Below are positions 51,340 through 59,026 of a stretch of 64,000 bases of DNA, piece by piece; the stretch's first letter is position 1, and every line of letters starts with the position of its first letter. The stretch covers positions 3,916 to 67,915 of the forward strand of contig JBJMWE010000281.1 in the NCBI GenBank assembly GCA_045810285.1. Reading direction: 5' to 3'. The stretch comes from Vitreoscilla sp. Its GTDB lineage: Bacteria; Pseudomonadota; Gammaproteobacteria; Burkholderiales; Burkholderiaceae_C. The translations under genes were made by a program, and so were the position numbers. The notes beneath the pieces are model-generated. The model was not told the DNA's origin. It did no database searches and saw only the letters and a program-made list of their open reading frames with translations.

Positions 51340-52680
51340 ATGACGCTGACCGTGGAGGAAGTGACCGCGCTCGCGCCGGACGACGCGTCCGCCAAGGCGG
51401 CGCGCGGGCTCGTCTCGCCGTCGAAGTGGCCGCTGCTGGGCGCCAACGAGGCCGCCGCCTGGGGCGAATGCCAGGGCAGCGGCTCCAAGCCCTACCAGAC
51501 GCAGGTCGACCTGTCGGGGCCGGCCTTCCGCTGCTCGTGCCCCAGCCGCAAGTTCCCCTGCAAGCATGGCCTGGCTTTGCTGCTGCTGCGCGCCGAGCAC
51601 GGCGGGCGCTTCACGGGCGGCGAGCCGCCGGCCTGGGTCGCCGAATGGCTCGCGTCCCGCACCGACCGCGCGCAGAAGAAGGAGACGCAGCTGGCCGAGA
51701 AGGCGGCGGCGCCCGTCGACCCGCAGGCCGCGGCCCGCAGCGAGGCGCAGCGCTGGAAGCGCATCGAGGGCGCCGCCGCCGACCTGCAACGCTTCCTGGC
51801 CGACCAGCTCGCGCGCGGCCTGGGCGCGCTCGACGCCAACACGCTCAAGACCTGGGCCACGATGGCGGCGCGCATGGTCGACGCCCAGGCGCCCGGCCTC
51901 GGCGCTCGCCTGCAGGACACGATGGCGGGCGTGCGCCAGGGCGAGCACTGGCCCGAGCGCAGCCTGCACGGGCTGGGGCTGCTGCAACTGGCATGCGACG
52001 CGATCGCCCGCCGCGAGTCGCTGTCGCCCGAACGCCAGGCCGACCTGCGCACGCTGGCGGGCTGGCCGCATGACCAGGGCGCGGTCGCCGCCACGGGCGA
52101 GCGCACGGCCGATCTCTGGCTGGTACTGGGCGTCACCACCGAGGAGCGCGCGAACAAGCTGACCGAGCGCCGCGTGTGGCTGCGCGGCGCCGCCAGCGGC
52201 CGCACGGGCTGGCTGCTGGACCACGCGTTCGCGGGCCGCGGCTTCGAGCAGGCCTGGACCGCCGGCGCCGCCGTCCAGGCGACGCTGGCCTTCTTCCCGA
52301 GCGCGGCGCCGTTGCGCGCGCTCGTGGTCGAACGCGGCGCGGCGGGCGACGCCAGCGGCCTCGCAATCGACGCCGCCCTGTCGTCCGCCGATGCGCCATG
52401 GCGCCAGGTGGCCGAGCGTGTCGCGGCCAATCCGTGGTTGACGCTGCATCCGCTGCTCCTGCGCGACGCCGTCGTCGAGTCGGCGGGCGACGCGGCCTGG
52501 CTGCGCCGCGGCGATTCGGCGTGGCCGCTGCGGGCGTCCGAGGGCGACCTCTGGCGCCTGCTGGCCTGCACCGGCGGCGCGCCCGTCAGCCTGGCCGCGG
52601 AATGGGACGGCGTCGCCGTGCGGCCGTTGACGGCCTGGACGGACGCCGGCCGCCCCGCCTGGTTCAAGGAGGTGGCGTGA
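51340..52680 (+). CDS. SWIM zinc-finger protein
   Basis: CxCx7CxH: FRCSCPSRKFPCKHGLALLL. 446 aa, with SD GGGGAGG upstream. Confidence 0.8.
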   Translation: MTLTVEEVTALAPDDASAKAARGLVSPSKWPLLGANEAAAWGECQGSGSKPYQTQVDLSGPAFRCSCPSRKFPCKHGLALLLLRAEHGGRFTGGEPPAWVAEWLASRTDRAQKKETQLAEKAAAPVDPQAAARSEAQRWKRIEGAAADLQRFLADQLARGLGALDANTLKTWATMAARMVDAQAPGLGARLQDTMAGVRQGEHWPERSLHGLGLLQLACDAIARRESLSPERQADLRTLAGWPHDQGAVAATGERTADLWLVLGVTTEERANKLTERRVWLRGAASGRTGWLLDHAFAGRGFEQAWTAGAAVQATLAFFPSAAPLRALVVERGAAGDASGLAIDAALSSADAPWRQVAERVAANPWLTLHPLLLRDAVVESAGDAAWLRRGDSAWPLRASEGDLWRLLACTGGAPVSLAAEWDGVAVRPLTAWTDAGRPAWFKEVA

Positions 52681-54281
52681 TGCGCGACGCCTCCGCGTGG
52701 GCGCCGCTGCTGCCGGTGGCCATGGTCGGCACCGACCGCCATCCGGCGCCGCTGCCCGCCTGGCCCGGCCCCGTCGGCGCCGCGATCGCCGCGTTGGCCA
52801 CGGTCGAGCGCAACGACGGCGACCGCGCCGCCTCCGACGTCCTGCGCGCGGCCGGCATCCTCGCGGTCTGCGGGCTTGCGGGCGCGCGCCCGGTGGCGCG
52901 CGCGCCAGGCCACGCCGACGCGGCCGCGCCCGACACCCTGCCCGCCGCCGCCGATCCGGCGTTGCTGGCCGCGCTCGCCTGGACACTGCGCGAAGGCCCC
53001 GACCGCCTCAAGCAGGCGTTCTTCCTGCGCCTCGCGCAGGCGGGCCTGCGCCTGCCCCATGCCCTGCTGCCGCAGGCGCTCGAGCTGGCGCGCTCGTCGC
53101 TGGCGCTGCGTCCGCTGATCCAGCCCCTGCTGGGCGAGCGCGGCGTGTGGCTCGCGCGCCAGCGCGCGGACTGGCAATTCGCCGCCGGCGTCGCGAGCGT
53201 CGACGAGGCCGACCCTCGCCATTGGGACGAAGGCACGCTCGAACAGCGCAAGGCCTTCCTCGCGGCCGAGCGCGCACGCGATCCGGGCGCCGCACGCGCA
53301 CGCCTGGCGGCGGCGCTGCCCGAGCTGCCCGCCAAGGAACGCGCCGAGCTCGCGCGCGGCTTTGGCACCGGGCTGTCGCTGGAAGACCAAGCGCTGCTCG
53401 AGCAGCTGCGCAACGATCGGGGCCAGGAGGTGCGCGCCGTCGCACTGGAGCTGCTGCTGCGCCTGCCCGATGCCGACCACCCGCGGCGGGCCACCCAGCG
53501 CGTCGCGGCGCTCATGTCGCGCGGCGGCCTGCTCGCCGGCCGGCGCTGGACGATCGAACCGCCCGCGCAGGCCGCCGCCGACTGGAAGGCGGACCAGATC
53601 GACCCGGACGCGCCCAAGGGCGCGATGGGCCAGCGCGCATGGTGGCTGTACCAGCTGGTGCGCCAGGTGCCGCTCGCCTGGTGGACGCAGCACACCGGCC
53701 TGGACGCGCGCGCCCTGTCCGACTGGGCGCGGGCCACCGAGTGGGGCGAGGCGCTGTGGCGCGGCTGGCGCGACGTCCTGCGCCGCGCACCCGACGCCGC
53801 GTGGGCCGAACTGCTGCTGGACGACGCCTCGGGCGCGGCAGGCTACGGCGGCGGCTCGCTGCACGGCGATCGCGAAATGGCGCTGGACCTGGTCTCCACC
53901 GCGGTGCGCGAGCGCTGGGTCGTGCGCCAGCTGGCGTCGTCGGAGGCCGCGCTGTCGTCGACGATCTGGACGGTCGCGTCGCGCTGCGGCCCGGGCGAGA
54001 CCATCTCGGCGAACCTGGCCGCTCCCCTCGTCGAGCGGGTGCGTCGCACGCTCGCCCTGAACACCGAGCTCGCCCCCGGCACGCACAACGCGAACATCGC
54101 CGAACAGGAGAGCGTCGGCCGCGTCCTGCCCGAGCTGTGCTGCGCGCTGCCCCTGTCCTTCCTCGCCGACTACGACGACTGGGCCGCATCGCCCAACGAA
54201 TCCCCCGCCATCGGCCGCGCCCGCCATGCGGGCCGCCAGATCATCCAGGCGCGCCGCGTCCTGGCTTCCTGCCTTCCCTGA
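52680..54281 (+). CDS. Hypothetical helical-repeat protein (DUF5691-like partner of SWIM proteins)
   Basis: TGATG start/stop overlap with AGGAGG upstream. 533 aa, Leu/Ala-rich. The family name is assigned from gene context and memory and has not been verified. Confidence 0.55.
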   Translation: MRDASAWAPLLPVAMVGTDRHPAPLPAWPGPVGAAIAALATVERNDGDRAASDVLRAAGILAVCGLAGARPVARAPGHADAAAPDTLPAAADPALLAALAWTLREGPDRLKQAFFLRLAQAGLRLPHALLPQALELARSSLALRPLIQPLLGERGVWLARQRADWQFAAGVASVDEADPRHWDEGTLEQRKAFLAAERARDPGAARARLAAALPELPAKERAELARGFGTGLSLEDQALLEQLRNDRGQEVRAVALELLLRLPDADHPRRATQRVAALMSRGGLLAGRRWTIEPPAQAAADWKADQIDPDAPKGAMGQRAWWLYQLVRQVPLAWWTQHTGLDARALSDWARATEWGEALWRGWRDVLRRAPDAAWAELLLDDASGAAGYGGGSLHGDREMALDLVSTAVRERWVVRQLASSEAALSSTIWTVASRCGPGETISANLAAPLVERVRRTLALNTELAPGTHNANIAEQESVGRVLPELCCALPLSFLADYDDWAASPNESPAIGRARHAGRQIIQARRVLASCLP

Positions 54282-57842: not shown

Positions 57843-59026
57843 GCAACAACACGGAAGGCGAACGGCTGGCACGCTGGCGCCTGGTGATCGGCAGCGAGGC
57901 CGAGGCGGCGTGCGGTGCGCTGGCCGGCCCCGCCGTCGAGATGGACCAGGCGCTGACCGCGCTCTACGACGTGCAGGGGCAGGCCGGCGGGCTGGGCGTG
58001 GGCGGGCGGCGTGGCGGCCGCGGCGGCCCGCAGCCCAGCGTGGCCCGCTGGCTGGGCGACATCCGCAAGTACTTCCCGAGCTCGGTCGTGCAGGTGATGC
58101 AGCACGACGCCCTGCAGCGCCTGAACCTGCGCGAGCTGCTGCTGGAGCCCGAGATGCTGCGCAGCGCGCAGCCCGACGTGCACCTCGTCGCCAGCCTGAT
58201 CGCGCTGTCGCGCGTGATCCCGGCCGGCACGAAGGACACCGCGCGGCTGGTCGTCCGGCAGGTGGTCGACGACCTCATGAAGCGGCTGGAGGAGCCCATG
58301 CGCTCGGCCATCGCCGGCGCGCTGGACCGCAGCCAGCGCAACCGCCGCCCCCGCCATGCGGAAATCGACTGGAACCGCACGATCCGCGCCAACCTGAAGC
58401 ACTGGCAGCCCGAGTACCGCACCATCGTGCCCGAGACGCTGCACGGCTACGGCCGCAAGGCCCGCAAGCCGCAGCGCGAGATCATCCTGTGCATCGACCA
58501 GAGCGGCTCGATGGCCAACTCGGTCGTCTATTCCAGCATCTTCGGCGCGGTGATGGCGTCGTTGCCGGCGGTGTCGACGAAGCTGGTGGTGTTCGATACC
58601 GCCGTCGTGGACATGTCCGAGCAGCTCGACGACCCGGTGGAACTGCTGTTCGGCGTGCAGCTGGGCGGCGGCACGGACATCGACGGCGCGGTGGGCTACT
58701 GCCAGTCGCTGATCCGCGAGCCGCGCAACACCATCTTCGTCCTGATCTCCGATCTCTACGAAGGCGGCGTCGAGGCGAACCTGCTGCGGCGCGCCGCGGT
58801 GCTGGTGGAGAGCGGCGTGCAGTGCATCGCGCTGCTGGCCCTCAGCGACGAGGGCCGCCCCGCCTACGACCACGCCCTGGCGGCCAAGCTCGCAGCGCTC
58901 GGCATGCCGTCCTTCGCCTGCACGCCCGACGCCTTTCCGGCGCTGATGGCGGCGGCCATCCGGCGCGACGACGTCGCCGAATGGGCCGCCAGCAACGGCC
59001 TGGTCAACAGTCCGTCAGCGCGCTGA
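57839..59026 (+). CDS. VWA-domain protein (CoxE-like) with MIDAS motif
   Basis: ATGA overlap with the previous gene. MIDAS DxSxS in ILCIDQSGSM, followed by GGGTDI. 395 aa. Confidence 0.85.
   Translation: MSNNTEGERLARWRLVIGSEAEAACGALAGPAVEMDQALTALYDVQGQAGGLGVGGRRGGRGGPQPSVARWLGDIRKYFPSSVVQVMQHDALQRLNLRELLLEPEMLRSAQPDVHLVASLIALSRVIPAGTKDTARLVVRQVVDDLMKRLEEPMRSAIAGALDRSQRNRRPRHAEIDWNRTIRANLKHWQPEYRTIVPETLHGYGRKARKPQREIILCIDQSGSMANSVVYSSIFGAVMASLPAVSTKLVVFDTAVVDMSEQLDDPVELLFGVQLGGGTDIDGAVGYCQSLIREPRNTIFVLISDLYEGGVEANLLRRAAVLVESGVQCIALLALSDEGRPAYDHALAAKLAALGMPSFACTPDAFPALMAAAIRRDDVAEWAASNGLVNSPSAR

Follow-up and report, generated by a model that had tools for sequence, protein, structure and literature searches.

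The 64,000-nucleotide stretch of Vitreoscilla sp. DNA analyzed here (contig JBJMWE010000281.1; hereafter the window, taken at its full length) carries on its forward strand, between positions 51340 and 59026, a cassette of five genes encoding in this order a SWIM zinc-finger protein, a DUF5691 protein, a MoxR-class AAA+ ATPase, a DUF5682 protein and a VWA protein. We report that these five genes share a constant order in many phyla, are translationally coupled and are inherited together as one conserved autonomous unit, and that two architectures of the wider system can be told apart. In addition, a putative TIKI/TraB-like hydrolase domain, assigned by structure modeling and motif comparison, appears to be present in the DUF5682 protein. 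YehL-type MoxR-VWA systems as such are already known, both in databases and in the classification of MoxR ATPases. With moderate confidence, we consider the best explanation of the cassette to be a self-contained MoxR-VWA machine of five subunits that belongs to the YehL subfamily, is located in the cytosol, has the architecture termed type A below and would capture and process a client with the help of ATP.

Layout and conservation of the five-gene unit

All five open reading frames (ORFs) described in a preliminary description of this DNA were found on the plus strand at the coordinates it had given, together with the SWIM finger, Walker A and DQSGS motifs that it had named (Table 1). Its junction lengths of -1, +11, +16 and -4 nucleotides (nt) were confirmed as well. 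ORF1 and ORF2 overlap by 1 nt (TGATG, 52678-52682), with a Shine-Dalgarno-like AAGGAGG 8 nt upstream, gaps of 11 nt and 16 nt follow ORF2 and ORF3, respectively, and ORF4 and ORF5 overlap by 4 nt (ATGA, 57839-57842), again with a Shine-Dalgarno-like sequence (GGAGA) upstream. The Pfam scan that it had proposed placed all five proteins above the gathering thresholds, with matches far above chance: SWIM for ORF1 (E 8.9e-6; 25.6 bits, cut-off 19.6), DUF5691 for ORF2 (E 1.6e-105; 354.9 bits, cut-off 27), AAA_5 for ORF3 (E 8.6e-37), DUF5682 for ORF4 (E 8e-263; 874.5 bits, cut-off 26) and VWA_CoxE for ORF5 (E 4.1e-50; 170.7 bits, cut-off 26.4). The coding frames of ORF1 and ORF4 are also marked by codon-position GC content (GC at third positions 0.93-0.94); this filter gave no resolution for ORF2, ORF3 and ORF5, and these calls rest on the Pfam matches. 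No transmembrane segment was predicted in any of the five proteins. Scans of the region, which has a GC content of 70-78%, detected no sigma-70-like promoter and no more terminator matches than expected by chance, and a scan of NCBIfam gave for the ATPase just sub-threshold matches to MadB and GvpN.

For comparison, loci were sampled by a pattern scan with a DUF5682 alignment, using one genome per species. At least 590 matches were confirmed and 80 loci were kept, which cover Burkholderiales, Xanthomonadales, Verrucomicrobia, Cyanobacteria, Melainabacteria, Desulfovibrionaceae, Acidobacteria, Chloroflexi, Bacteroidota, Planctomycetes and Clostridia, as well as Trueperaceae and Myxococcota. The ORFs of each locus were searched with the five window proteins and with hidden Markov models derived from them. 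The order SWIM - DUF5691 - MoxR - DUF5682 - VWA was present in 60 of 82 loci (the window included), and contig ends truncate most of the remaining loci of this set. Of the 61 fetched loci that had sufficient flanking sequence, 57 contain the complete collinear set, 56 of them with five intact genes and one, locus L021, with the first two genes fused. The complete set was found in more than 10 phyla, with loci in each of the eleven groups from Burkholderiales to Clostridia listed above. The multigene unit that the preliminary description had suspected is thus conserved as such. Counting against a strict unit are the exceptions among the 61 loci, namely three cyanobacterial loci in which DUF5682 stands alone or at a distance from the VWA gene and a single locus, from Trueperaceae, that has neither the SWIM nor the DUF5691 gene. 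These two genes are also missing from a Competibacteraceae locus (L027) that is cut just past DUF5682 but extends for 10 kb in the upstream direction.

Coupling is most evident at two junctions. The SWIM/DUF5691 and the DUF5682/VWA junctions both have a median of -4 nt, with the 4-nt overlap itself present in 29 of 63 and 26 of 66 loci, respectively. The MoxR/DUF5682 junction is the loose one and has accepted insertions of 0.7-4.3 kb. These comprise genes for an HSP90-like ATPase and a TPR protein in Variovorax sp. OK212 (L013, 5673-9989), an HD-domain dGTPase-like protein in a metagenome-assembled genome (MAG) of the Planctomycetales (L075, 7190-9932), and DUF6688 and LysM proteins in locus L064 (8816-9992 and 12283-13280), where the DUF5682/VWA junction is hit too. 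In locus L021 (5533-8811), from a Hydrogenophaga MAG, the SWIM and DUF5691 proteins form one ORF of 1092 amino acids (aa) with a linker of about 35 residues; because this is a single MAG, the fusion could be an assembly error. Genes for AbiEi and AbiEii lie directly upstream of it.

No companion gene is conserved in the 80 loci. The largest flanking cluster, a generic ABC ATPase, occurs in 15 loci at varying distances, and the 132 nearest neighbors from about 35 loci were assigned to 169 Pfam families, none of which occurs more than three times. Since no neighbor is conserved, we regard the cassette as autonomous. It is also widespread: a profile search of 1.84 billion representatives returned 5010 DUF5682 proteins at E <=0.001 and 1913 at E <=1e-30, counted at the 50% identity clustering level.

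The five subunits differ in how well they are conserved. Median identity to the window protein is 76.6% for MoxR, which is still 72% identical in the most distant set, 65.6% for VWA, 50.4% for DUF5682, 43.3% for the SWIM protein and 34.2% for DUF5691. This gradient fits a conserved motor that may operate with variable adaptors.

Table 1. Features of the cassette and of related loci. Positions refer to the window unless another locus is named; aa numbers refer to the respective protein.
Feature	Positions	Strand	Basis or remark
ORF1, SWIM zinc-finger protein, 446 aa	51340-52680	+	Pfam SWIM
SWIM finger CxCx(6)CxH, CSCPSRKFPCKH, ORF1 aa 65-76	51532-51567	+	Cross-phylum alignment
ORF2, DUF5691 protein, 533 aa	52680-54281	+	Pfam DUF5691
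ORF3, predicted YehL-type MoxR-class AAA+ ATPase, 363 aa	54293-55384	+	Pfam AAA_5
Walker A GVPGTAKS, ORF3 aa 86-93	54548-54571	+	Alignment
VEELTR, acidic EE replacing DE at the Walker B position	54764-54781	+	Alignment
ORF4, DUF5682 protein (YehM homologue), 813 aa	55401-57842	+	Pfam DUF5682
Putative TIKI/TraB/GumN-like alpha/beta domain, ORF4 aa 20-300	55458-56300	+	AlphaFold2, Foldseek, Pfam, hhalign
Motif G28-I-R-H31	55482-55505	+	Alignment
E55 in VLIEGP	55554-55571	+	Alignment
Motif R241-E-A-x-M	56121-56135	+	Alignment
Motif G265-A-W-H268	56190-56204	+	Alignment
ORF5, CoxE-type VWA protein with complete MIDAS, 395 aa	57839-59026	+	Pfam VWA_CoxE
MIDAS DQSGS, ORF5 aa 220-224	58496-58510	+	Alignment
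MIDAS GGGTD	58664-58678	+	Alignment
MIDAS SD within ISDLYEGG	58745-58768	+	Alignment
Hemerythrin-like (HHE cation-binding) gene, 180 aa	50708-51250	+	89 nt upstream of the SWIM gene; absent from the preliminary description
DUF4132 genes yehH and yehI, Escherichia coli (L001)	2411-8912		Head of type B operon
DUF4132 gene, Bacillus mycoides p322 (L084)	4391-7825		Operon head, type B
DUF4132 gene directly after VWA, Chitinophagaceae, type A	L054 13453-16407; L074 13617-16580; L081 13486-16464		yehH homologue

Relation to yehLMPQ and to conflict systems

The preliminary description had equated the gene set with the yehLMPQ cluster of E. coli K-12. This holds for the MoxR, DUF5682 and VWA genes. 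ORF3 is 39.7% identical to YehL over 358 of its 363 residues (E 8.6e-78), ORF4 is 27.5% identical to YehM, itself a DUF5682 protein (Pfam E 2.4e-98), and ORF5 is 35.2% identical to YehP. The N-terminal SWIM finger of YehQ has the position of that in ORF1, and nothing else of the two proteins aligns (E 0.14). A DUF5691 counterpart was not found in E. coli, and single-sequence comparisons with YehQ and YehI show no relation. Because DUF5691 is missing and the gene order differs, the likeness to yehLMPQ is partial.

We therefore distinguish two arrangements. Type A, represented by the window, is SWIM - DUF5691 - MoxR - DUF5682 - VWA. Type B has a DUF4132 protein instead of DUF5691, and its SWIM protein comes last. 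Upstream of E. coli yehLMPQ are yehF (WGR), the yehH pseudogene and yehI (both DUF4132), and yehK; plasmid p322 of Bacillus mycoides has the order DUF4132 - AAA - DUF5682 - VWA - SWIM with tight junctions. Both share with the window the core order MoxR-DUF5682-VWA and a protein with an N-terminal SWIM finger, but they have a DUF4132 protein of 1,100-1,200 aa at the head and no DUF5691, and the last-placed SWIM protein of E. coli, of 614 aa, can be aligned to ORF1 over the finger alone. In three Chitinophagaceae loci of type A, a DUF4132 gene directly follows the VWA gene (Table 1).

A published function that would already explain a yehLMPQ-type cluster, an eventuality that the preliminary description had raised, was not found in the literature searched, nor was any functional study of the cassette, yehLMPQ, DUF5682, DUF5691 or DUF4132. 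There, yehQ and yehM appear in strain lists or mutation lists alone.

The E. coli variant is present in 5353 of 5426 complete E. coli genomes (98.7%), with a median of one copy. With yehLMPQ of K-12 as the query (L001, 9597-15945), 934 E. coli records show 90-95% and eight records 80-90% nucleotide identity. Such identities are lower than is usual for core genes of E. coli, which may reflect divergent alleles or recombination.

These distributions bear on the possibility that the cassette is a nucleoside triphosphate-dependent conflict or antiphage system, in which the SWIM-DUF5691 pair would sense a molecule of an invader, the MoxR-VWA pair would act as a threshold switch and the TIKI-like domain of DUF5682 would be an effector protease. 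We consider such a role unlikely. In its favor, the SWIM and DUF5691 proteins diverge much faster than the motor, and the cassette is autonomous, has unrelated flanks and is scattered over many phyla and some megaplasmids. AbiEi and AbiEii genes adjoin locus L021, the genes inserted between MoxR and DUF5682 encode, among others, an HSP90-like ATPase together with a TPR protein and, in another locus, an HD-domain protein, and the copy on plasmid pOB3b3 of Methylosinus trichosporium OB3b (L083) lies among insertion sequence (IS) elements, a Phd/VapC pair and Imm26. MoxR-vWA pairs are, moreover, documented or proposed switches in conflict systems (PMC7159879; PMC13622651).

Several observations nevertheless argue against it. 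The presence of the E. coli variant in 5353 of 5426 genomes is core-gene behavior, unlike that of typical defense systems. The neighborhood analysis suggested by the preliminary description, which asked about defense islands, lent no support to such a setting: the 132 nearest neighbors from about 35 loci are mostly housekeeping genes with sporadic AbiE or TnpB-like genes, and PADLOC-DB 2.0 yielded no meaningful match, with IetA alone at E 0.001-0.002 over 33 P-loop residues. The window itself is a region of sugar utilization, efflux and ion transport. On plasmids, the cassette was found in 39 of 72,556 records, mostly megaplasmids or mislabeled chromosomes, and a single doubtful phage record was found. 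The proposals of MoxR-VWA modules as conflict-system cores, to which the preliminary description referred, do exist (PMC7159879), but that survey does not include this cassette and mentions neither YehL nor SWIM, TraB, DUF4132 or WGR, and the bpMoxR match reached 22.9 bits against a cut-off of 27. The MoxR-vWA ternary conflict systems (Kaur et al. 2020; Actinomycetales Esr pathway) resemble the cassette in combining a MoxR-vWA pair with more variable proteins that might be sensors; they differ from it in that the cassette lacks VMAP, iSTAND, beta-propeller, FtsH, kinase/FHA and toxin domains.

Cargo of phages or plasmids was also considered as a description of the cassette and was rejected on the same plasmid and phage counts. 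As to the individual records, pOB3b3 (180 kb) carries a type A cassette between IS6 and IS66 elements with a recombinase nearby, and the PLSDB table, which is incomplete, lists no VWA gene after DUF5682 on this plasmid. The sole phage-collection record with a DUF5682 homologue is MT835988.1 (10641-12758; 27.6% identity, 91% coverage), a 14-kb human fecal entry named 'Bacteriophage sp.' that is unannotated and maybe a mis-binned bacterial contig.

Predicted motor, adaptors and DUF5682 domain

The MoxR and VWA proteins look functional, judging from their intact ATPase motifs and metal ion-dependent adhesion site (MIDAS). GVPGTAKS (Walker A), VEEL, TAN (sensor 1) and RRF (arginine finger) are invariant or nearly so in 53 ATPases including YehL; in ORF3 itself, sensor 1 reads ATANN and the arginine finger region reads KRRF. 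The MIDAS elements DxSGS, GGGTD and SD are invariant in 51 VWA sequences including YehP. By its motifs, its identity to YehL and the adjoining MIDAS-bearing VWA protein, ORF3 is assigned to the YehL subfamily, one of seven subfamilies of MoxR ATPases (PMC3893208). By the accepted principle of MoxR-vWA pairs, the MIDAS captures a peptide, which is followed by ATP-driven remodeling (PMC7159879, section 8). The nearest solved relatives of ORF3 are AAA domains of midasin (E 5.6e-15) and NorQ (E 5.6e-5), and for the VWA protein no solved relative was found at E <=0.01.

The first two subunits are the more variable ones. SWIM-protein homologues were detected in 66 of 82 loci. ORF1 residues C65, C67, C74 and H76 are invariant in a 28-sequence cross-phylum alignment, as are several further positions, and by inference ORF1 would be a recognition or adaptor subunit. 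DUF5691 is the fastest-evolving subunit, with 17-35% identity across phyla and nine invariant columns. Searches with sequence profiles found no relative in the Protein Data Bank (PDB) for either protein. From its sequence, ORF2 is predicted to be a HEAT-like helical protein: one source labels a DUF5691 homologue 'HEAT repeat domain-containing', and DUF5691 and DUF4132 have a HEAT-like stretch, and that alone, in common (hhalign E 0.0015, probability 16%). The preliminary description had been able to name a catalytic motif in neither ORF2 nor ORF4. For ORF2 this stands, as no enzyme motif was found in DUF5691; ORF4, by contrast, contains a motif set of the TIKI/TraB/GumN type. The same description had named the mapping of either protein to a characterized enzyme family as a result that would count against a machine of undefined role, and this point is touched by the ORF4 match.

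ORF4 consists of an N-terminal TIKI/TraB-like domain, a poorly modeled middle part and a C-terminal alpha-helical repeat region, with a variable acidic insert at approximately aa 125-180. In an alignment of 39 N-terminal sequences from many phyla, YehM included, the residues G28, R30, H31, E55, E100, W101, D118, W197, E202, R222, R241, E242, M245, C264, G265 and H268 are invariant within the first 300 residues. This set comprises two GxxH motifs, a Glu that ends the second strand and, on the helix ahead of the second GxxH, an Arg. The GxxH pair is reportedly a signature of the TIKI superfamily, as is said to have been described by Bazan in 2013 and by Sanchez-Pulido in 2013. Members of this superfamily have an alpha/beta fold with a parallel beta-sheet core between helices and a site made of two His, two Glu and an Arg (PMC6254334).

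Structure and profile comparisons point in the same direction. An AlphaFold2 model of full-length ORF4 had a mean predicted local distance difference test score (pLDDT) of 64.5 and was confident for a helical part that spans roughly residues 510-745, and a Foldseek search with it returned helical-repeat noise alone (E >0.01). When aa 20-335 were modeled separately, pLDDT was 79.8 and the predicted template modeling (TM) score was 0.78. The top five Foldseek matches of this domain among 350,542 PDB chains were three entries of a Tetrahymena complex IV chain and two of Bcr135, a protein of the erythromycin-esterase family, and ChaN was found at rank 35; the best scores (E 0.014, probability 0.94, TM about 0.3) are weak. 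By its length of 383-384 residues, the Tetrahymena chain is a candidate for COXTT5, a 385-aa subunit listed as 'TraB family protein' (PMC10060162). Bcr135 and ChaN are both named as TIKI-superfamily members (PMC6254334). When the 39 N-terminal domains were scanned singly, the best non-self Pfam family was TraB_PrgY_gumN, which matched two of the 39 (best E 0.0011).

We also compared the DUF5682 N-terminal domain by hhalign with an alignment of TraB/GumN proteins, composed of E. coli YbaP and five plasmid-borne TraB/GumN proteins. The local match covers the R...GxxH block (E 0.0021). A low-threshold collinear alignment of 205 columns (E 0.0045) brings all four motif blocks together and pairs G28xxH31 with G38xxH41, E55 with E67, R241 with R228 and G265xxH268 with G249xxH252. 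With YbaP alone, just the first motif block was aligned (E 0.23). The spacing between the first His and the Glu is 24 residues in ORF4 and 26 in YbaP, and that between the Arg and the second His is 27 and 24, respectively; the corresponding spacings of RRSP are 28 and 29 (PMC6254334).

Taken together, these comparisons make it probable that ORF4 aa 20-300 belong to the TIKI/TraB superfamily, with a likeness in the alpha/beta fold, the GxxH pair, the Glu, the Arg and their spacing to the TIKI, TraB, PrgY, GumN, erythromycin-esterase, ChaN and RRSP proteins. ORF4 differs from them in a similarity that is at the detection limit, in its large acidic insert and in the fusion of the domain to about 500 further residues. 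A putative catalytic activity of the domain is less probable than its superfamily assignment. The following points weigh against both. Each line of comparison is weak when taken alone (Foldseek E >0.01 and TM about 0.3; hhalign probabilities <20%), and a DUF5682 profile search of PDB sequences gave nothing meaningful. That H31, E55, R241 and H268 would form one site is a prediction from their sequence positions. The first Glu of the ExH arrangement of RRSP is replaced by Ile or Arg at the equivalent position of ORF4, in which the other invariant acidic residues of the domain are E100, D118, E202 and E242. Short Foldseek matches to histidine-phosphatase domains, centered on the RH(H)G segment, mean that another chemistry is possible for ORF4. 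Finally, the superfamily has nonenzymatic members, namely ChaN, which binds heme, and PMT, which is without the motif (PMC6254334), so that a hydrolase activity of ORF4 is not assured.

The nonenzymatic members are relevant to the idea that the cassette is a chaperone for the insertion of a metal or cofactor into an unlinked enzyme, in the manner of CoxD-CoxE-CoxF, NorQ-NorD or the CobS-CobT chelatase, with a ChaN-like DUF5682 protein that would hold the metal or tetrapyrrole. In support of it, the VWA protein belongs to the CoxE family, the ATPase is of the AAA_5 type with NorQ among its nearest solved relatives, and heme-binding ChaN is both a member of the TIKI superfamily and among the fold matches. 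The cassette of the window is preceded, at a distance of 89 nt, by a hemerythrin-like gene and followed by msrA and msrB; mutations of yehM in copper-evolved E. coli are an anecdotal hint. However, the known insertion chaperones adjoin the genes of their clients, and no neighbor is conserved here in 80 loci; a hemerythrin gene lies beside the cassette in one other locus alone. SWIM and HEAT-like subunits are not known in such chaperones, and the invariant GxxH/E/R/GxxH set is that of the hydrolytic superfamily members. We regard this explanation as decidedly unlikely because a client gene is never linked. What NorQ-NorD, CbbQ-CbbO and CoxD-CoxE do have in common with the cassette is the pairing of a MoxR ATPase of the AAA_5 type with a VWA protein that bears a MIDAS, and the motor principle is likely the same; they differ from it by adjoining their client enzymes and by having two or three components, whereas the cassette possesses three additional conserved subunits and lacks a conserved neighboring client.

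Midasin (Rea1) offers a different comparison. The cassette could be a split equivalent of it, a nonhydrolytic disassembly machine that strips a factor from a large complex, of protein or nucleoprotein, recognized by the SWIM finger, with the TIKI-like domain having a structural role. Common to both are ATPase domains of the AAA_5 type and a MIDAS domain, together with a helical linker and an acidic region. Among solved structures, AAA domains of midasin match ORF3 best (E 5.6e-15), and DUF5682 combines an acidic insert and a long helical C-terminal region with coupling to the MIDAS protein; the noncatalytic members of the TIKI superfamily would permit a structural domain. Yet the midasin match is a general feature of AAA_5 domains, and the GxxH histidines, E55 and R241 are strictly invariant from E. 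coli to Bacteroidota, as expected of a working site and not of a relic. Midasin, moreover, is a single eukaryotic chain of 4,700-4,900 aa with six AAA domains, whereas the cassette encodes separate bacterial proteins. The resemblance is only architectural, and we hold a midasin-like function to be very improbable.

We thus return to the capture-and-processing machine as the explanation that we favor. The mechanism that we infer for it, with a motor, DUF5682 as both hydrolase and scaffold, and a SWIM-HEAT recognition pair, goes beyond the conservation of the unit, the two architectures and the domain assignment. A MoxR hexamer and the VWA protein would operate as in NorQ-NorD, CbbQ-CbbO or midasin. 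The MIDAS would capture an acidic residue or peptide of the client, and ATP hydrolysis would pull on the client or remodel it. DUF5682, made in step with the VWA protein, would be a scaffold that carries a TIKI-type site to the client, either hydrolytic (most likely of a peptidase) or ligand-binding. Client selection would fall to a fast-evolving module of the SWIM protein and HEAT-like DUF5691, two subunits that are coupled and in one genome fused, and the client would be encoded elsewhere in the genome. In a more specific version, the MoxR-VWA motor would feed or activate DUF5682 as a TIKI-type peptidase, with the SWIM-HEAT pair as an exchangeable receptor, which would make the cassette a novel type of AAA+-coupled processing enzyme; this version is possible but rather unlikely.

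If it applied, it would represent a bacterial ATP-dependent protease or regulator built of parts not previously seen together, and most E. coli as well as thousands of further genomes would carry it. To our knowledge, no member of the TIKI/TraB superfamily works with an AAA+ ATPase, and we know of no other TIKI-family enzyme linked to an AAA+ motor; a hydrolase activity of ORF4 would tie one to such a motor. Independently of this, the YehL-type system, to which the literature searched assigns no function, is widespread, with about 5,000 DUF5682 representatives in more than 10 phyla. The autonomy of the cassette, its conserved motor as opposed to a diverging SWIM/HEAT-like pair and the retention of catalytic-type residues provide a basis for concrete experiments on these DUF families.

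Genomic surroundings

In the window, the cassette is located in an ordinary chromosomal setting without a defense-gene island, and the nearest relatives of the window are Burkholderiales. Upstream on the same strand are genes for a CLC channel with CBS domains, an HPP-CBS protein and a Na+/H+ exchanger, followed by the hemerythrin-like gene (Table 1). We examined the latter as a candidate member of the operon and rejected it, as it is not conserved with the cassette elsewhere. Because a homologue lies near the cassette in just one other related locus, it probably stands outside the system. Downstream, msrA and msrB converge on the cassette, with genes for a beta-propeller protein, a nucleoside phosphorylase and a TonB-dependent receptor beyond them. 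Glycosidases of families GH43, GH51, GH62 and GH3 are encoded in the remainder of the window, as are sugar kinases and an RND efflux pump.

Some minor observations concern these surroundings. The three ion-transport ORFs upstream (45994-50690, plus strand) overlap one another (48260 versus 48279; 49269 versus 49411), and it is uncertain where the second and third genes really start. Five successive ORFs of 324, 106, 105, 171 and 129 aa on the plus strand (38561-41498) have no Pfam match and a lower GC content than their surroundings (0.65-0.67 versus 0.70-0.78). Genes for arabinan- and xylan-degrading enzymes are clustered at 13835-22902 on the plus strand and at 33270-36551 on the minus strand; they encode three GH43 enzymes, a GH51-type arabinofuranosidase, a GH62 enzyme, a GH43 enzyme with CBM6 and a GH3 enzyme, with a LacI-type regulator and sugar kinases nearby.

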